IMG/VR virus record: IMGVR_UViG_3300028571_000037
Coordinates: 1-54,681 of that record
Direction: 5' to 3' (one strand)
Length of the DNA: 54,681 bases
DNA from: a virus
Taxonomy: Duplodnaviria; Caudoviricetes
Shown: positions 28,830-44,365 of the stretch, piece after piece
How the letters are laid out: every line of letters begins with the position of its first letter
Position numbering within the stretch: position 1 is the stretch's first letter
The notes under the pieces: generated by a model
Seen by the model: only the letters and a program-made list of their open reading frames with translations
What the model was told of the DNA's origin: nothing
The model's database searches: none
Made by a program: the position numbers and the translations under genes

Positions 28830-30386
28830 ATGAAAAAGGTAAATTTGGAAGATGGAAACGCTTCTTTGAATAAGGTTCTCCTAATGATGAAATACGATAC
28901 GAGTAAGACTCTTAACGAAAATAAAGTTTTATTACAAGAACAAGAAATCCCAAAAGGTTACAGAAAAATCGTTGGTCAAGATTTTGTTCGTGGACCCAAA
29001 GCAGAAAAAATCAAACAAGGACTTCTCGAGTTACAAAGTGTTGAAGATTTTGCGGCACTAAATAAGTTTCACAAAGCTGCAGTTGGATTCGAAATTCCGA
29101 GGTTGTTGCAAAATGAATTGGGTGTTGGTGATGTTTTAAGAGCAAAACAAATTCAGGACCATCTGAAAAAAATCGGCGTTCAGATGACATATGGGTTGAA
29201 GGGACCTGCGAATGTAGACGGTTCATCAATCAAACTTAAATATATAAGAAAAACCGCTGAACCAAAACCTGAAGATACCAAAGTGCAACCCAAAACCACA
29301 AAACCACAATTTGTTGAAGGACCTACGAAAGAAGAAGTAAAATCTGGAAAAAAACTTCTTAAATCAGGTATGAAAGGTGAATTTGTAAAAGAGGTACAAT
29401 CTGTATTGAATGCACTGTCATCAGAACAAGGAAACTCTAATTTTTTTGTTGGTAAGGTCGATGGATTATTCGGTGGTAAAACAAAAAAGGGCTTACAAAA
29501 CTATCAAATTTCTGCAGGACTTAAATCCGATGGTGTTTTAGGAAAAGACACATTCGCTCTTCTTTTTAGAGACAAGACCGAACCATTGGCAGTTGCCAGT
29601 AAGAATACAAAATCAATTCTACCCACACGACCCGAATCAGGAGTTCAACGGGTTCCAACACTACCAACTCAAAACGCTCATGTAGATCCACAACCTGTAA
29701 TAAGAGAAAGTCTCAAAAAGAACCTCAAGACAAAATTAGTTGAAAAAACTCAAGAAAAAGAAAATCTTCTTATTGAATCAAAAATTACTACAAACAGATT
29801 CAAACTTATCTCAGAGGGTCTTGTAATTGAAACCGATGACGATAAAATCAGATTCGTTGAGACTGTCATCCAAGAAACAAATTACTTGGTGTCACAGGGA
29901 TATACCTCTAAGTCAATAAACGAAGGTTTATTTAGTGCTTTAGGAGGTTTATTCGGGGGATCTTTGAAAGCTATACCCGCCGTATTTGGCGAATATATCG
30001 CGAAGTGGCTTACTAAAACTTTAGGGGTTCCGCAGGGGTCGTTTATCGAAGGTGCTATTATGGCTTTGGTAGGTAACCTAAACATTGCTGATTACGATAA
30101 ATTTTTCACGGATTGTAGATTTGCTTCCAATAAAATCGCAGATTCATTAATTGAGGGATATCTTATTCAAATGCAGAACAAAATGAATTCAACTTCACAA
30201 GGAGCTTCAGGATTTATCGTATCGGCACTTCGTAACGCAGTTGCTGAAAACTTCTTGGAAGACAAAGAAGGTATCATTCAGATCTTACAAGACAAAATCG
30301 GTGATTTTCTATGTCCTAAACTGGCCAAAGTATCAAATGTAATCGCTGATAAAACAGAAGAAATTAAAGACAAGGCGGTAGCCTAA
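28830..30386 (+). CDS. Large protein with central peptidoglycan-binding domain, probably virion-associated
   Basis: LKSGMKGEFVKEVQ...VDGLFGGKT...DGVLGKDT; several LxE motifs; TATTTAT at 28809. Confidence 0.8.
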   Translation: MKKVNLEDGNASLNKVLLMMKYDTSKTLNENKVLLQEQEIPKGYRKIVGQDFVRGPKAEKIKQGLLELQSVEDFAALNKFHKAAVGFEIPRLLQNELGVGDVLRAKQIQDHLKKIGVQMTYGLKGPANVDGSSIKLKYIRKTAEPKPEDTKVQPKTTKPQFVEGPTKEEVKSGKKLLKSGMKGEFVKEVQSVLNALSSEQGNSNFFVGKVDGLFGGKTKKGLQNYQISAGLKSDGVLGKDTFALLFRDKTEPLAVASKNTKSILPTRPESGVQRVPTLPTQNAHVDPQPVIRESLKKNLKTKLVEKTQEKENLLIESKITTNRFKLISEGLVIETDDDKIRFVETVIQETNYLVSQGYTSKSINEGLFSALGGLFGGSLKAIPAVFGEYIAKWLTKTLGVPQGSFIEGAIMALVGNLNIADYDKFFTDCRFASNKIADSLIEGYLIQMQNKMNSTSQGASGFIVSALRNAVAENFLEDKEGIIQILQDKIGDFLCPKLAKVSNVIADKTEEIKDKAVA

Positions 30387-37376: not shown

Positions 37377-37449
37377 CAAAGTAGACCTTCAAAAGGGCCC
37401 TTCCGTATCTGCGTGAACGGCATGTTGGGCCCGGGTCTACCTCTTTCAA

Positions 37450-37523
37450 GCAGAAGTAGCTCAGTTGGTTAGAGCGCAAAACTGTTAATTTTGATGTCCT
37501 TGGTTCGAGTCCAAGAGGGGGAG
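37450..37523 (+). tRNA. tRNA-Asn(GTT) with unpaired acceptor stem (chimeric)
   Basis: D, anticodon (CAAAA-CTGTTAA-TTTTG) and T arms intact, but GCAGAAG cannot pair with AGGGGGA. Confidence 0.75.
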
Positions 37524-37661
37524 CACCGTTACTTGAACTAGCACTAGGAAAGTAACAACCATTGGATGAAGCTAGCATCTCGAATGGTCCTGTAGGTTGA
37601 CAAGTAAAAAGTCCTACCAGGTAGAGTAGGTAATCCGTATTCGGATAAGCTCTACCATTTT

Positions 37662-37734
37662 GCGAAAGTAGCTCAGTTGGTAGAGCATGACCTTACCAAG
37701 GTCAGGGTCGCCGGTTCGAATCCGGTCTTTCGCT
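37662..37734 (+). tRNA. tRNA-Gly with anticodon ACC
   Basis: GCGAAAG/CTTTCGC-T (U73, Gly identity), TGACC-TTACCAA-GGTCA. Confidence 0.92.
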
Positions 37735-37777
37735 CTAATGATAAATATTAATTCAGATATTTATTATTTGTAAAAAT

Positions 37778-37878
37778 AGTCGGGTGGCTGAAATGACAAA
37801 GGCACATTCACTTCGGATGGTGAACACAAGACCTGAAAAGGTTGTTCTCAATTGTAGGTGGGATTCCTACCCCGACTA
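37778..37878 (+). ncRNA. tRNA-like RNA with non-canonical anticodon region and T-loop
   Basis: AGTCGGG/CCCGACT-A acceptor, TGGCTGAA D-arm start, GTAGG-TGGGATT-CCTAC T-arm, long GAAA-capped extra arm. Confidence 0.65.
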
Positions 37879-37885
37879 TCGTATG

Positions 37886-38069
37886 GGTTGGTAGTAATAT
37901 GCGTAGGTCGACGATATGGGAGAGCATATCGCAAGGGTACACACTAAGGATAAGTCGTTTATTTCGGGACTCACGTCCGATTGTATGAAAAGACTCGTCT
38001 CTCTAATGGTGTGTGAAGCCGAATCAGTGAGTAAGGTCAGATTCCTGATAAAGTCGATCACTATCAACC
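37886..38069 (+). ncRNA. Unassigned multi-stem structured RNA (~184 nt)
   Basis: Closing helices GGTTGGTAGT/ACTATCAACC and GGTCGAC/GTCGATC, several internal stems, T run after; GC-richer than flanks. Confidence 0.6.
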
Positions 38070-38170
38070 TTTTTTATTTGTATAATATTTGTTGAACATC
38101 TGTTAAAAAATGTTATCTTTGGATCAAGATTTGTTATTACTGAATGTGCAACTAAAAAACTAATTGAAAG

Positions 38171-38855: not shown

Positions 38856-39011
38856 ATGGTAGACAAATTTGTATGTATCATTTGTAGTGTACCAGCAACC
38901 ACCAAAATTTCGGTTAATATGGGAAGTGACTTTTTGTTGTCCTGTTCTGACGAAAGTTGTAAACGGGTTATTAGATCACAGATACAGGGAGCATTGAAAA
39001 ATCAAAATTAA
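38856..39011 (+). CDS. Small Cys-rich protein
   Basis: MVDKFVCIIC...CSDESC. Confidence 0.5.
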   Translation: MVDKFVCIICSVPATTKISVNMGSDFLLSCSDESCKRVIRSQIQGALKNQN

Positions 39012-39034
39012 AATTATAATATTTGTAAAAAATT

Positions 39035-39106
39035 GCCGATATAGCTCAGTGGTAGAGCCACTGATTTGTAATCAGTAGGTCCTTGGTTCAAATCCGAGTA
39101 TCGGCT
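39035..39106 (+). tRNA. tRNA-Thr(TGT)
   Basis: GCCGATA/TATCGGC-T, ACTGA-TTTGTAA-TCAGT. Confidence 0.95.
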
Positions 39107-39127
39107 CAAAATATAAACTAATTCTAA

Positions 39128-39256
39128 ATGAGTAAATTTGATTGGAGACACGCAGACCTCGAAGGTGATGGAAAACCTAAAGGACGTGATGTTAAAAAAG
39201 AAATAAAACTTCCTAAGTTGACCAATAAAAAAAATAAAGGTAAAAATAAAGAATAA
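39128..39256 (+). CDS. Small basic protein (42 aa)
   Basis: MSKFDWRHADLEGDGKPKG..., Lys-rich tail. Confidence 0.5.
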   Translation: MSKFDWRHADLEGDGKPKGRDVKKEIKLPKLTNKKNKGKNKE

Positions 39257-39424
39257 TGGAATCCTACCAAACTGACTGTAAATTGGATGAACTTAAAACT
39301 AACCTGTTATTAAACGATCCACTCGATTCTTTGAAGAAAGAAATACAAAAAAAAACCGATGAACCGTTTATTTGTCCTTGGGATAATAATTTGGGAGATA
39401 TAACATATTTTCGATAATATCAAC

Positions 39425-39497
39425 GGACGAATAGCTCAGGGGTAAGAGCAGGATGCTTATATCATCAAGGCCGAGGGTTCGATTCCCTCTTCGTCTA
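39425..39497 (+). tRNA. tRNA-Ile(TAT)
   Basis: GGACGAA/TTCGTCT-A, GATG-CTTATAT-CATC, GAGGG-TTCGATT-CCCTC. Confidence 0.88.
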
Positions 39498-39561
39498 CTA
39501 ACCCATATAAAAGTTTGATAATATTTTTTTTTCTTATATTTAAACTAATTATTATAAAGTT

Positions 39562-39651
39562 ATGAAAACAATTATTCAGAATATTATTGATCCACAACAC
39601 GGAGTCATTTGTCAAAAATGGTTTCTGGGTGGTGTATGTTCGGGAGTTTGA
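39562..39651 (+). CDS. Candidate attenuator leader peptide (29 aa)
   Basis: MKTIIQNIIDPQHGVICQKWFLGGVCSGV; its last codons contain the antiterminator strand. Confidence 0.7.
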   Translation: MKTIIQNIIDPQHGVICQKWFLGGVCSGV

Positions 39652-39713
39652 AATAAACTAAATAAGCCTTTATAAAGGAAAACCCCGAACTCATATGAGA
39701 CTCGGGGTTTTTT
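39638..39713 (+). terminator. Terminator with mutually exclusive antiterminator
   Basis: Terminator AAAACCCCGA/TCGGGGTTTT plus T run; GTTCGGGAGTTT (39638-39649) pairs with AAACCCCGAAC (39680-39690) with one bulge. Confidence 0.78.
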
Positions 39714-39723
39714 GTTTTTATAA

Positions 39724-39735
39724 GTTCTTTGAAAT
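39724..39735 (+). promoter_or_regulatory. boxA-like element GTTCTTTGAAAT
   Basis: Same motif after tRNA-Ser (1953) and just upstream of the tmRNA (44205-44216, minus). Confidence 0.55.
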
Positions 39736-39755
39736 GTTGGTTACCATATACAGTC

Positions 39756-39917
39756 TTACTTCTTAGAGAAGATAGACCAAAGAGTTCCCGATAAAGCAAC
39801 TACACCACCAATAAGTTCGTTTAGAAGGGATTCCTCAATAACACCTTGGATTACCAAGATACCACCTACGAAAGTAAGAACGTGTCTTACGATTCCTTGA
39901 ATTTGTTCTTTTGTCAT
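39756..39917 (-). CDS. Putative holin (53 aa, two TM), not in the ORF track
   Basis: MTKEQIQGIVRHVLTFVGGILV...WSIFSKK; RH-LT-GG and W-S-KK pattern of small phage holin-like proteins; minus-strand TATTTAT upstream. Confidence 0.7.
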   Translation of the reverse strand: MTKEQIQGIVRHVLTFVGGILVIQGVIEESLLNELIGGVVALSGTLWSIFSKK

Positions 39918-39976
39918 AATAGAAAATTTTAATTAGATTTATTCATTATAAATATCTAACTTTGTAGTCATAAGAC

Positions 39977-40050
39977 AGGCATTTAGCTCAGATGGTTAGA
40001 GCACCTCGCTGATACCGAGAGGGTCGGAGGTTCGAATCCTTCAGGGTGCA
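39977..40050 (+). tRNA. tRNA-Ile(GAT) with mismatched acceptor stem (chimeric)
   Basis: D, anticodon (CTCG-CTGATAC-CGAG) and T arms intact; AGGCATT versus AGGGTGC has three mismatches. Confidence 0.75.
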
Positions 40051-40055
40051 CACAT

Positions 40056-40130
40056 GTTGGCCGTAGCTCAGTAGGTTAGAGCGTCTGATTGTGGTTCAGA
40101 AGGTCGTGGGTTCGATTCCCATCGGTCACC
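40056..40130 (+). tRNA. tRNA-His(GTG)
   Basis: G-1:C73, TCTGA-TTGTGGT-TCAGA; T1:C72 mismatch. Confidence 0.92.
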
Positions 40131-40135
40131 CAAAT

Positions 40136-40209
40136 GGTCCTGTACCCAAGTGGTTTAAGGGGGTGCTCTGCAAAAGCATTATTCATCAGTTCGAATCTGA
40201 TCGGGACCT
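40136..40209 (+). tRNA. tRNA-Cys(GCA)
   Basis: GGTCCTG/CGGGACC-T, GTGCT-CTGCAAA-AGCAT. Confidence 0.95.
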
Positions 40210-40215
40210 CAAAAT

Positions 40216-40286
40216 TACCCTCTCGTCTAATGGCAGTACAAGCGGTTTTGGTCCGCTGAATTGGGGTTCGAGTCCCTGGGGGGTAA
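40216..40286 (+). tRNA. tRNA-Gln(TTG)
   Basis: TACCCTC/GGGGGTA-A, AGCGG-TTTTGGT-CCGCT. Confidence 0.93.
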
Positions 40287-40291
40287 CAATT

Positions 40292-40355
40292 GCGTCCATA
40301 GTGTAATGGTATCATCACGGTCTCCAAAACCGTTGTTCTAACTTGGAGTCCCACA
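40292..40355 (+). pseudogene. tRNA-Trp(CCA) with decayed or replaced 3-prime end
   Basis: GCGTCCA, D arm and ACGGT-CTCCAAA-ACCGT present; no paired T arm and no TGGACGC acceptor strand. Confidence 0.75.
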
Positions 40356-40491
40356 TTATACATTACCTACAAAAAATAACAGAGTTATATTTTATATATC
40401 GAACTAATTACACACTATTTTACATTTTATGGTCAAAAAAAAGTAATAACTCTATCTAATATAATATTTATTGAATTATACTTGTATTCGA

Positions 40492-41118
40492 ATGGAATTT
40501 ACAACAGTACTTACTACATTAATCACAGCTGTTTCATCGGTCTTTGTTGCTCTTATCACCGCAGGGTACTTTAGAAGATTACATGACCGAAACGTTGAAA
40601 ATAAATCAAAAAAACTTTTGATGGTTCAAATCCAAAAAGATGAACTGATACATTTTACACTCAGGGAGATACGTAGGAAATACAATTCGGATAGGGTTTA
40701 TATTTTACAATTTCACAACGGAGGTATTTTTTATACACAGTCTCCAATGCAGAGAGCATCTGTCACCTATGAAAGAAATTCAGATGGTTTGGAGAGAATA
40801 ACAGATAGATTTCAGAATATACTAATATCAAACTATAATTGGTTATTGAAAGAAACAATTGAAAACAGGTTTTTTTTCAATGACATAGATCAACAGATTG
40901 AAGATCTACCAACCAAAAGTTTACTAAAAGCATACGGTAACTACGCACACGCAACGGTTCCAATTTACGACAACTCACAACAACTTATCGCTACTCTATC
41001 CCTTAGTTGGGTATTTTCAGAAATTCCAACAGATTGGATAGAAGACGATAAATTTTCGATATATTTCAAAACATCATTGTTTACGGATGCAAACTCATTG
41101 AAAACCCTTCTAGTATGA
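40492..41118 (+). CDS. N-terminal TM plus GAF-like domain protein
   Basis: Hydrophobic N-helix; DRVYILQFHNGG...SVTYE...VPIYD...IATL pattern. Confidence 0.65.
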   Translation: MEFTTVLTTLITAVSSVFVALITAGYFRRLHDRNVENKSKKLLMVQIQKDELIHFTLREIRRKYNSDRVYILQFHNGGIFYTQSPMQRASVTYERNSDGLERITDRFQNILISNYNWLLKETIENRFFFNDIDQQIEDLPTKSLLKAYGNYAHATVPIYDNSQQLIATLSLSWVFSEIPTDWIEDDKFSIYFKTSLFTDANSLKTLLV

Positions 41119-41396
41119 TTGACTTTTGGGATATAGAGTTTGATTCAGAAAATGAATTTTTAAACAACGACTTTATCGATGGTATTATCAAATTAGGTTT
41201 TGTAAAAAAAACAAATTTTATTTATGTAAAAGAAGTTGTTAATTATTTTGGTGATGTCGTGTCCGATGGTCTTTTGATTGATTTGGAACAAAAGAAAATT
41301 TACTATCATCCCGAACCAAACTGTGTTGTGAATTATGAGTTACCCGATCCTGATATAACTAAGGTAGACTTTTTTATCCGAAACAATATTATTTGA
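41115..41396 (+). CDS. Hypothetical protein
   Basis: 93-aa ORF. Confidence 0.65.
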   Translation: MIDFWDIEFDSENEFLNNDFIDGIIKLGFVKKTNFIYVKEVVNYFGDVVSDGLLIDLEQKKIYYHPEPNCVVNYELPDPDITKVDFFIRNNII

Positions 41397-42428: not shown

Positions 42429-43154
42429 TTATAAATTTTGCCAAGATTTTCCTATGATAATGTTTCTGATACAACCTAAAGTAACATTGAATTTGTTTGC
42501 AAACTGTTGATAAGTATGACCTTGGTTTCGGTCAAAATTTTTTCTTATCCATATAACATCTTCTTTACCAAACTTTGCCGCTGGTGTTCTTCCTTTTCGT
42601 GACTCCTTTAATTTCAATAGATGTTCATCGGAAAAACCACCTTTATCTTGCCATACCTGTTGTAATTTTTTACCCGCCACATTCTTTTGTTCTTGAGTCC
42701 ATTTGTTACCAAAGTTCGGATTTTCTTCACCCATCATAATCCCCTTTAATCCATTGTTCCAAGGAACAAAATCCTTTTTAGCGTCTTTCATTTTCTGAAT
42801 GACTTCAGGATTTTGCATTGCTTTTTTTGTTCCTACAGAAACATTTTGTTTTCTTTCTTCAGTGACTATTACCCCTTGACTACCTTCACCACCATCAGTC
42901 AAATTTACCAATGAACCTAATCCCAAATCGCGGCGACCTAATTGTTTGATTTCAGATTTTTCCCATTCACAGGCCTGCTCCCATGTGATATTTTCTTTTA
43001 TAATTTCAATGCTATAACCCACCTTATTTACTATATGGTGCCAATGTGGGTTTCGGCTGTCTTCTGAATAAGGACGTTCACGATCACCAATTCCCACGTA
43101 AAATACCTCTTGAGTATCCATTCTATAGTGTTTGTATCCAACCTTGTTATTCAT
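42429..43154 (-). CDS. GIY-YIG-like homing endonuclease with NUMOD-type repeats and C-terminal HTH
   Basis: YKH...FYVGIG-R, E-I, LVNLTDGGEG, PWNNG, GEENPNFG. Confidence 0.8.
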   Translation of the reverse strand: MNNKVGYKHYRMDTQEVFYVGIGDRERPYSEDSRNPHWHHIVNKVGYSIEIIKENITWEQACEWEKSEIKQLGRRDLGLGSLVNLTDGGEGSQGVIVTEERKQNVSVGTKKAMQNPEVIQKMKDAKKDFVPWNNGLKGIMMGEENPNFGNKWTQEQKNVAGKKLQQVWQDKGGFSDEHLLKLKESRKGRTPAAKFGKEDVIWIRKNFDRNQGHTYQQFANKFNVTLGCIRNIIIGKSWQNL

Positions 43155-43788: not shown

Positions 43789-44201
43789 TGGTGGAGGTGA
43801 GCGGAGTCGAACCGCTGTCTTGCTCAGTTTACCCATAAAGGACTACATGCTTAGGTCAGGGTTTGTCGTACCCTCCGAAATATTTGATTCCTTTTTTTTC
43901 CATCGTTATCAACAACTATGGGGTGTTCACTCAAAACCGGCAGAACACCAAACATTACCTCCATTCCTTTTAAGATAGAAACCACACCATAAGGACTTCT
44001 GTTTCAAGGTATATGTCCCCCTCGACCCATTGTTATTATAGCCTAAGCTACAGTAACTCCCTCGGTTTGGATTAGACCCAAAGCCTCAAGTGTTGCGAAA
44101 GTATCGCCTTTTGATTTTTGCTTCCATAGATTAAAGTGATAGGAAACATCTCACTGCATGCCCCGTATGACTAACTCTGCCAATCAATACCCGGCACCCC
44201 C
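43789..44201 (-). ncRNA. ssrA: tmRNA (413 nt)
   Basis: 5-prime GGGGGTG pairs with CACCTCC-ACCA (G3:U70); GAC-AGCGG-TTCGACT-CCGCT T arm; GCATG/CATGC helix; tag ORF 44108-44043. Confidence 0.95.
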
Positions 44202-44306: not shown

Positions 44307-44365
44307 AACATTACAAATATAAATACAATTTTATTGATATGAAACTATTTATAATAAAAAAAACT

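Follow-up and report, generated by a model that had tools for sequence, protein, structure and literature searches.

A predicted leader-peptide attenuator with a boxA ahead of phage tRNA arrays

The leader locus

The window analysed here is the whole of the IMG/VR virus record IMGVR_UViG_3300028571_000037 (54,681 bases), and its estimated completeness of 23% implies that it is a piece of a large phage. Positions 39514-39740 of the window hold a promoter-like element, a short open reading frame (ORF), an intrinsic terminator and a boxA-like element, and are followed by a cluster of transfer RNA (tRNA) genes. On comparative grounds this stretch is probably a ribosome-dependent leader-peptide transcription attenuator with a boxA, and is likely to represent a widespread module found ahead of the tRNA arrays of Bacteroidota phages. 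The first-pass annotation, made from the letters of the window alone, had proposed leader-peptide attenuation ahead of the phage tRNAs, and this proposal is supported by the conservation, the covariation and the match between leader and array that are described below.

The leader ORF (Table 1) ends with a stop codon at 39649-39651, and the stem of the terminator begins about 28 nucleotides (nt) downstream, so that the short ORF ahead of a strong terminator is as it had been annotated. Translation likewise gives the composition that had been noted, namely 5 Ile, 3 Gln, 2 Cys, 1 His and 1 Trp in a peptide with 16 kinds of amino acid. The peptide has no match in Pfam, and the Rfam search returned no family for the leader; a weak ohsC match over the terminator (E 0.58; 26.7 vs 50 bits) was dismissed. 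When the peptide was searched by tblastn against the first 54 loci, it matched in L002 only, and distant leaders appear to be unrecognisable from their peptide sequence. No cultured relative was found among the INPHARED phage records, in which positions 39000-41200 gave tRNA matches only and in which neither the leader of the commonest family nor the 518-amino-acid ORF at 28830-30386 had a match.

Promoters of Bacteroidota have the consensus TTTG / TAnnTTTG. The element ahead of the leader ORF is of this type, with one mismatch to TAnnTTTG in its downstream box. A perfect TATATTTG is found at the leader promoter in L057 and in a contig of a relative from an RNA library, and a perfect promoter precedes the ORF in a sister type of the leader, for example TTTG-N19-TATCTTTG in L055. 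The two-part motif is enriched in the window (9 occurrences vs 3.15 expected; reached by 0/100 shuffles). TAnnTTTG alone shows no enrichment, as 89 were found vs 74.65 expected and 4/100 shuffles reach 89.

Two RNA libraries hold small shares of such sequence, and the contigs come from relatives that are 90-95% alike. One of these contigs, 256 nt long, spans 39502-39756, beginning about 12 nt ahead of the promoter-like element and taking in both terminator and box, although it shows neither strand nor ends and may represent DNA. This applies to all the RNA-library contigs, since such libraries can contain DNA, and stretches of the window that lack RNA cover are no evidence in either direction.

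Table 1. Elements of the leader region and of the adjoining tRNA cluster, in window coordinates
Feature	Coordinates	Strand	Description
Promoter-like element for the leader, Bacteroidota type	39514..39542	+	TTTG 39514-39517, 17-nt spacer, TATATTTA 39535-39542
Leader ORF	39562..39651	+	29 codons and TGA; peptide MKTIIQNIIDPQHGVICQKWFLGGVCSGV
Region 2, putative antiterminator strand	39638..39649	+	near-copy of the terminator 3' arm within the last four codons
Intrinsic terminator	39679..39719	+	stem AAAACCCCGAACUC / GAGACUCGGGGUUUU, then U-tract
boxA-like element GTTCTTTGAAATGTTGG	39724..39740	+	15/17 bases as in the consensus GTTCTTTGACATATTGG
tRNA-Ile(TAT)	39425..39498	+	ARAGORN; Rfam 62 bits; just upstream of the leader
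Holin gene, 53 amino acids	39756..39917	-	Pfam PF23987 Phage_holin_10, E 9.5e-16; 94% identical in L002
Candidate second promoter, -7-type box TAACTTTG	39957..39964	+	14 nt before the tRNA cluster; kept in L055
Ile/Val hybrid tRNA	39979..40050	+	Rfam 48 bits; absent from the ARAGORN calls
tRNA-His(GTG), intact	40057-40131	+	ARAGORN, Rfam
tRNA-Cys(GCA), intact	40136-40210	+	ARAGORN, Rfam
tRNA-Gln(TTG), intact	40216-40287	+	ARAGORN, Rfam
tRNA-Trp(CCA) remnant	40292..40345	+	aligned to the intact Trp gene of L055; 5' two thirds retained, T arm and 3' end diverged

Conservation of the leader in close relatives

A degenerate DNA pattern for nine residues of the peptide retrieved one viral contig and three metagenome contigs, and the leader ORF is kept in the four close relatives thus found (L055/L002, L056, L057 and L058). 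The leaders are of two types. The window and L057 share the type MKTI[IV]QNIIDP[QH]HGVICQKWF[LQ]GGVCSGV, and the sister type of L055, L056 and L058 reads MKTLVYNI[ND]QPQHGVICQKWFQRGVLCSGV. The ORF, region 2 and the base of the terminator are all kept across these relatives. Among the five close sequences, compared by eye, the 9 variable codons are all amino-acid-changing, none (0) differs only synonymously, and a 3-nt indel is in frame. Variation that only changes amino acids, together with an in-frame indel, is expected neither of a protein under purifying selection nor of a random frame.

The arrays of the two types also differ. In the sister type a tRNA-Phe gene begins 24-25 nt after the start of the box, and beyond the antisense holin gene stand tRNAs for Ile, Lys, Val, His, Cys, Gln and Trp. 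The invariant core of the leaders, the ten residues QHGVICQKWF, includes all 8 amino acids of the sister array. Part of this core, HGVICQKWF, may resemble the TnaC leader, a likeness that is given no weight here. The metagenome contig L057 has a Phe-less arrangement like that of the window.

A recurrent module upstream of tRNA arrays

Distant loci, found by means of the holin gene, show the same order upstream of their tRNA arrays, that is, promoter, short ORF, terminator, a box TTCTTTGACATATTGG and tRNAs. A scan of viral contigs with a pattern made of a T-run and the box matched 115 stretches, of which 80 loci were listed, and more were added. From 138 extracted hits, 98 with a terminator were kept, and these reduced to 72 unique modules. 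The pattern of retrieval fixes the terminator and the box by construction, and leaves the ORF, region 2 and the tRNAs free.

An ATG-initiated ORF of 22-49 codons is present in 68 of the 72 unique modules, with a median distance from stop codon to stem of 25 nt (range 19-40 nt). The conservation of the ORF in relatives, on which the earlier proposal had been made to depend, is therefore found both in the four close relatives and in these modules. The 90 nt ahead of the ATG contain a TAnnTTTG box in 42/67 modules, vs 7.5% of random windows of that size. Where 1 kb or more of downstream sequence is available (60 modules), a same-strand tRNA always occurs within 2.5 kb, with three or more such tRNAs in 56/60; in 58/70 modules the box is followed by the start of the first tRNA within 130 nt.

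Some contigs carry more than one module. L154, L088, L120 and L142 each have two different leader/terminator/boxA modules, and each module has its own sub-array and a differing leader composition. In L088, for example, one array is Ser/Gln/Val/His... and the other is Thr/Leu/Glu/Asp/Gly/Ala.

Pairing of the leader end with the terminator

The terminator (39678-39716) folds alone at -17.9 kcal/mol and is kept in the minimum free energy (MFE) structure of 39600-39720. It is the only strong plus-strand hairpin with a T-run within 36-41 kb. A simple terminator scan missed it, probably on account of an internal loop in its stem. Read on the other strand, it stands behind the convergent holin gene as well.

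The last codons of the ORF had been annotated as complementary to the 5' arm of the terminator, and the computed duplex of the two has an energy of -15.3 kcal/mol. When the RNA is folded only as far as the terminator loop, which mimics the state in which the 3' arm is still inside the polymerase, the MFE structure has a 7-bp core of GUUCGGG (39638-39644) with CCCGAAC (39684-39690). Region 2 of the window extends from -12 to +1 relative to the stop codon and could thus be masked by a terminating ribosome. The terminator forms once 39634-39663 are masked, as they would be by a ribosome at the stop codon. Hence the folding of this region with and without ribosome masking, which the first-pass annotation had suggested as a check, gives the behaviour that an attenuation model needs.

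The pairing was then compared across modules with the last 12 codons and the stop codon of each ORF set against terminator arms. The mean energy was -12.35 kcal/mol with the module's own arm, vs -7.89 kcal/mol with the arms of other modules and -6.47 kcal/mol for shuffles; the 42 nt upstream of the ATG, taken as a control, gave -1.55 kcal/mol. In 42/59 modules no more than 5% of the shuffles matched the duplex with the own arm. In 50/68 modules region 2 overlaps the footprint that a terminating ribosome would have, taken as -15..+14 around the stop codon.

Covariation was examined in an alignment of 25 of the 30 GTTC-type sequences, a selection that favours pairing but not covariation. The 6-bp antiterminator core is paired in 150/150 cells of the 25 sequences (slid controls, 8.7-58.7%), and one of its pairs is AU in 12, GC in 12 and GU in 1 of them. 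The terminator is 97% paired across the relatives, with 3 pairs altered on both sides, and the same position co-varies in region 2, the 5' arm and the 3' arm. Both the conservation of the antiterminator and the covariation in the two stems are thus borne out. Families differ in how they translate the motif GTTCRGG (G-S-E, S-S-G, C-S-G or K-F-R), and this reading in different frames implies that region 2 is conserved as RNA and not as peptide.

A boxA of the ribosomal RNA type behind the terminator

The boxA-like motif noted after the terminator can be given a more definite identity. At least 120 stretches of bacterial genomes contain its consensus 17-mer, and by record title almost all of them are from Bacteroidota, for example Pedobacter, Mucilaginibacter, Chitinophaga and Bacteroidales. 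In four contigs with ribosomal RNA (rRNA) operons (rrn), checked with Rfam, the box lies in the 16S-23S spacer, past the spacer tRNAs and ahead of the 23S gene. Of 81 box copies in 80 loci, 57 stand 20-198 nt upstream of the 23S 5' end, 9 stand too close to the end of a locus to be assigned, and 15 are elsewhere; the 15 copies without a neighbouring 23S gene have no downstream tRNAs and no phage-type module. By sequence and position, the phage box is identified as the 16S-23S spacer boxA of Bacteroidota, which we take to be akin to the boxA of Escherichia coli. In E. coli rrn operons, boxA is the site of NusB-NusE, from which the rRNA antitermination complex is nucleated, and the resistance to termination conferred by a boxA bound by NusB-NusE is established for E. 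coli rrn and for lambda nut (PMC3177189, PMC4807359, PMC10250234). The nut sites of phage lambda also employ a host-type boxA (PMC2800207).

The position of the box is the strongest argument for a conditional terminator and for a single transcription unit of leader and array. In the phage modules it begins 0-13 nt past the U-tract, which leaves no room for an intervening promoter. A boxA acts as RNA, and a copy just past a terminator would be made only by polymerases that have passed the terminator. The identity of the box and the type of the promoter boxes also suggest that the hosts are Bacteroidota.

The box was also considered as a promoter and rejected. The TTTG of the U-tract stands at a spacing of 0-13 nt and not 17-21 nt, there is no TA at -7, the box occurs once per module, and it is the boxA of the rrn spacer.

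Two further arrangements of the box were observed. In the Bacteroidales contigs L207 and L248 a TTG...TATATTTG promoter and a structured leader are followed, at about 100 nt, by the same boxA, perhaps as the leader boxA of an rRNA operon. A single tRNA gene stands between terminator and box in L004 (reverse complement, 2110-1960), L060, L144, L149, L158 and L168; it is flanked by the repeated ...ATATTGG / ...AAATTGG, and the tRNA genes appear to have been inserted at the 3' end of the box.

Leader composition and the downstream tRNAs

Whether the composition of the leaders follows the downstream tRNA sets across relatives had been named as a check, and it does. In a test set of 22 peptide clusters drawn from 54 modules, leaders contain 97.4% of the kinds of amino acid of their own array, vs 79.2% with permuted arrays, and the array provides a tRNA for 50.3% of the leader residues, vs 38.1%; neither value was reached in 20000 permutations (0/20000 each), although the modules are interrelated and such counts overstate their independence. 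The same holds at the codon level under strict wobble (42.5% vs 31.4%; 0/20000), and the outcome did not change under three other definitions of the array. The coverage test gave 4/10000 when the clusters were loosened to 11. Array anticodons read 119/175 codons of the amino acids that have several codons.

Individual families illustrate this relation. The leader MKNLHIITLLGADLEAGDITMVMV stands ahead of a Leu, Met, Gly, Ala array, MRNYMNICDYRNINMNINECEDYISTTG ahead of Glu, Asp, Tyr, Cys, and MKTLLDILLVSLMAVALLWDDDAEEVRKVGFIEGDRG ahead of Asp, Glu, Val, Leu, Ala, Trp. The regulatory codons of the leaders are mostly single and of many kinds, without tandem runs, and the sister type does not preserve the two ATT ATT pairs of the window.

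The tRNA cluster and its surroundings in the window

The first-pass annotation listed tRNAs for Ile, His, Cys, Gln and Trp behind the terminator. The His, Cys and Gln genes are intact and called by ARAGORN; the 'Ile' is an Ile/Val hybrid, and the 'Trp' is a remnant that was called by neither ARAGORN nor Rfam. The hybrid consists of the 5' half of tRNA-Ile(GAT) and the 3' half of tRNA-Val and results from a deletion between two anticodon loops, seen as a gap of about 187 nt against L055 that removes tRNA-Lys. Its acceptor stem is mismatched (mismatches counted by eye), hence the hybrid probably does not function. The window also lacks the tRNA-Phe found behind the box in the sister lineage.

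The site at which tRNA-Trp is truncated resembles a rearrangement breakpoint. In a relative the block from leader to Trp lies about 9 kb upstream of a region with Thr, Ile(TAT) and a GAF-like gene; in the window the block has tRNA-Ile(TAT) on one side and the GAF-like gene on the other. Another lake sample yielded independent DNA contigs that agree with the window throughout 39300-40043 and 40120-40427, the first of them extending only about 30 nt beyond the Ile/Val junction (bridging threshold 31 nt). These contigs, and the same Phe-less order in L057, argue that the arrangement is not an accident of assembly, with the Ile/Val junction bridged by about 30 nt only. Going by the sequence, then, the window has an intact switch and an eroded cargo. 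There is no terminator between tRNA-Ile(TAT) and the leader, so that upstream transcripts also reach the attenuator. The attenuator of the window may accordingly be partly vestigial, or may act mainly on transcripts from the upstream unit of tRNA-Thr and tRNA-Ile(TAT).

An antisense holin gene had been placed in the read-through region, and the Pfam match identifies it as such. A Phage_holin_10 gene among tRNA genes of the opposite strand was seen in 13/44 of the holin loci scanned (L002-L046). Transcription of the array antisense to the holin in such loci is a possible tie of tRNA expression to the timing of lysis.

The window and its relatives hold further RNA genes and related features in this region. 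A transfer-messenger RNA (tmRNA) gene at 43789-44201 on the minus strand was found with Rfam (RF00023, 73.1 bits, E 1.4e-26) and was not reported by ARAGORN; a TATATTTG box lies upstream of it at 44314-44321. In the relative L024 a tmRNA directly adjoins the holin gene. Positions 37380-38100 are relatively G+C-rich and structured-looking and lack a long ORF. They contain a partial tRNA match at 37457-37515 (positions 8-63 of the Rfam model), no further Rfam family matched there, and the stretch could be an interrupted tRNA or an unknown RNA. A 241-amino-acid ORF at 42429-43154 on the minus strand, adjoining the tRNA/tmRNA region, carries a NUMOD3 motif of the sort found in homing endonucleases (Pfam E 4e-5).

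Proposed mechanism

The structural features of leader-peptide attenuators are found together in the module, namely an ORF behind a promoter, a terminator, a covarying antiterminator, a strand that can be masked and a match of leader and array. Those of an rrn-type boxA are found as well, in its identity with the rRNA-operon boxA of the host group and its place ahead of a long untranslated RNA operon. We infer that the leader is translated, that stalling is the signal and that Nus factors bind the box; the physiological trigger, as the first-pass annotation had proposed, may be host tRNAs that are uncharged or cleaved. The host RNA polymerase would start at a promoter of the TTTG / TAnnTTTG type and transcribe the 29-codon leader. 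Smooth translation to the TGA would bring a ribosome over region 2, the terminator would fold, and transcription would stop at about 39716. If the ribosome stalled early for want of a decodable aminoacyl-tRNA, or if the leader were not translated, region 2 would pair with the 5' arm and the polymerase would read through. The emerging boxA RNA would then recruit NusB/NusE-type factors, as in rRNA operons, and so make the polymerase processive over the untranslated array. In the window the read-through transcript would have to cross the antisense holin to reach His, Cys and Gln.

A further step is decidedly unlikely as it stands. The leader would be a rewritable gauge of the tRNA pool, with codons re-spelled as the array gains and loses genes; read-through would refill the tRNAs that run short, and transcription antisense to the holin would postpone lysis. 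The idea draws on the fact that the leaders of the window and of the sister type differ only by amino-acid-changing codons and that their arrays differ too. With the same low probability, the shortage would arise, for example, after the action of host anticodon nucleases or phage-induced tRNA decay, and lysis would be delayed until translation capacity is restored.

Points against and alternative explanations

Several observations tell against reading the locus as an attenuator that senses its own array. At equilibrium the terminator (-21.2 kcal/mol) is favoured over the antiterminator (-14.6 kcal/mol), and the folds of the window predict no helix between a region 1 and region 2. With the terminator favoured and no helix to sequester region 2, the switch must be kinetic, and without such a helix it would be 'on' with an untranslated leader, unlike trp. 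The best complement of the terminator arm lies outside the footprint of a terminating ribosome in 18/68 modules. In composition, the leader of the window spans 16/20 amino acids, which makes a match in a single window weak, and with only 3 intact downstream tRNAs no more than 6/28 of its residues match (His, Cys x2, Gln x3). Across the modules about half of the leader residues have no corresponding array tRNA, and 56/175 codons of multi-codon amino acids are unreadable under strict wobble, including GTC/GTT for Val(TAC) here. The boxA of the window has 2 mismatches to the consensus, and the holin gene is antisense to any read-through transcript and stands in its path. To these must be added the retrieval pattern and the relatedness of the modules mentioned above.

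A separate promoter at 39920-39976 had been named as grounds for giving up the proposal. A promoter-like box, TAACTTTG, does lie there, and it has no TTTG partner at the canonical spacing. It also weighs against the attenuator, since a conserved box before the tRNAs may drive His, Cys and Gln independently, so that the remaining tRNAs may also arise without read-through.

It is unlikely, though worth serious attention, that the attenuator is real and senses general translation capacity or the arrest of a nascent peptide in place of specific downstream tRNAs. A scarcity of ribosomes, a global shut-off or an arrest motif (the recurrent H...W-F) would then free region 2 and open the array. An untranslated leader already favours the antiterminator for lack of the region 1:2 helix, the leaders are unusually diverse (19 kinds of amino acid in 36 residues in L010, for example), several unrelated-looking families share [KQ]-H ... 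W-(x0-3)-F when compared by eye, and only about half of the leader residues match the array. However, leader composition tracks the array far above permuted arrays at the level of both residues and codons. Leaders without Trp or Phe serve arrays without those tRNAs; for example, the MKNLHII...MV family goes with Leu/Met/Gly/Ala arrays, and the L121 and L090 leaders, rich in Asn, Asp, Glu and Tyr, go with Glu/Asp/Tyr/Asn arrays.

The chances are slim that the ORF is an independent small-protein gene, with a terminator that merely ends it, the upstream tRNA unit and the convergent holin, and with the tRNAs driven from 39957. A boxA 0-13 nt behind an unconditional terminator could not be transcribed, and the tRNA-Phe of the sister type follows the box with no room for a promoter, even though promoter-like elements stand before the ORF and (TAACTTTG) before the tRNAs and a TAnnTTTG box follows the boxA in L022, L065 and L154. 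That the terminator is the stable equilibrium fold and sits at the convergent junction with the holin would suit such a gene. Its product, on the other hand, has no Pfam match and is not conserved between families, whereas the length of the ORF, the distance from stop codon to terminator and the copy of the arm within the ORF are; that copy is read in different frames, and the five close sequences have no codon difference that is synonymous only.

It is hardly credible that the ORF and its pairing are chance features of an AT-rich intergenic region with a bidirectional terminator: a 29-codon open frame is expected about 1 in 10 times in such composition by our estimate, and the fold of 39600-39720 is not exceptional (z -1.59), yet the comparative data contradict chance, with the same architecture and its covariation in 68/72 unique modules retrieved by a pattern that excluded ORF, region 2 and tRNAs.

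Relation to known systems

The control proposed here would work like that of known leader-peptide attenuators, with tRNA genes as its target and a boxA joined to it. Leader-peptide attenuators are known from amino-acid operons (trpL, hisL, leuL, pheL, and the multivalent thrL and ilvGMEDA), and they were reportedly surveyed by comparison by Vitreschak and colleagues in 2004. The phage module resembles them in its short ORF with codons of the controlled amino acids, its intrinsic terminator and a mutually exclusive antiterminator masked by the terminating ribosome, and, like the multivalent thrL and ilvGMEDA leaders, it samples several amino acids. It differs in controlling tRNA genes and not biosynthetic enzymes, in having a boxA behind the terminator, and in matching no Rfam leader family. 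Unlike trp and his, it has neither tandem codon runs nor a predicted region 1:2 anti-antiterminator.

Attenuation of pheST through the pheM leader and T-box riboswitches control the genes of aminoacyl-tRNA synthetases. As in these, parts of the translation apparatus would be switched on by terminator read-through when charged tRNA is short. However, a T-box binds uncharged tRNA directly and needs no ORF, and pheM controls a synthetase gene, whereas the product of the phage module is the tRNA itself. The loop would thus answer a shortage of tRNA molecules and not of an amino acid.

With the rrn boxA the phage module shares the 17-mer of the Bacteroidota 16S-23S spacer and a place before a long untranslated RNA operon. 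It differs in that the box directly follows a conditional terminator and precedes tRNA arrays, in that the copy of the window deviates at 2/17 positions, and in that Nus binding is here a prediction.

The nearest published case is that of Anabaena sp. PCC 7120, whose silent tRNA array (trn operon) is induced by translational stress. It is similar in being an accessory tRNA array that stays off until translation is impaired; unlike the phage module, it is regulated through promoter repeats (PMC8421152, PMC10272220). The main text of PMC8421152 contains no attenuat-, leader peptide or terminator, and that of PMC10272220 no attenuat-, leader peptide, uORF or stall. No paper on the attenuation of phage tRNA genes was found in the literature outside subscription journals and supplements.

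Significance for phage tRNA genes

Why and when phages use tRNA genes of their own is an open question. If the attenuator reading is true, the array is expressed on demand, and the demand is gauged by a test peptide made up of the amino acids for which the array has tRNAs. Leader-peptide attenuation would then extend from amino-acid and synthetase genes to tRNA genes, and a phage would combine it with an antitermination signal of the host rRNA type. The identical boxA and the promoter type point to Bacteroidota hosts for many uncultured phages of lakes and sediments. Likewise, the leaders would provide a read-out, at the level of sequence, of which tRNAs a phage treats as limiting.

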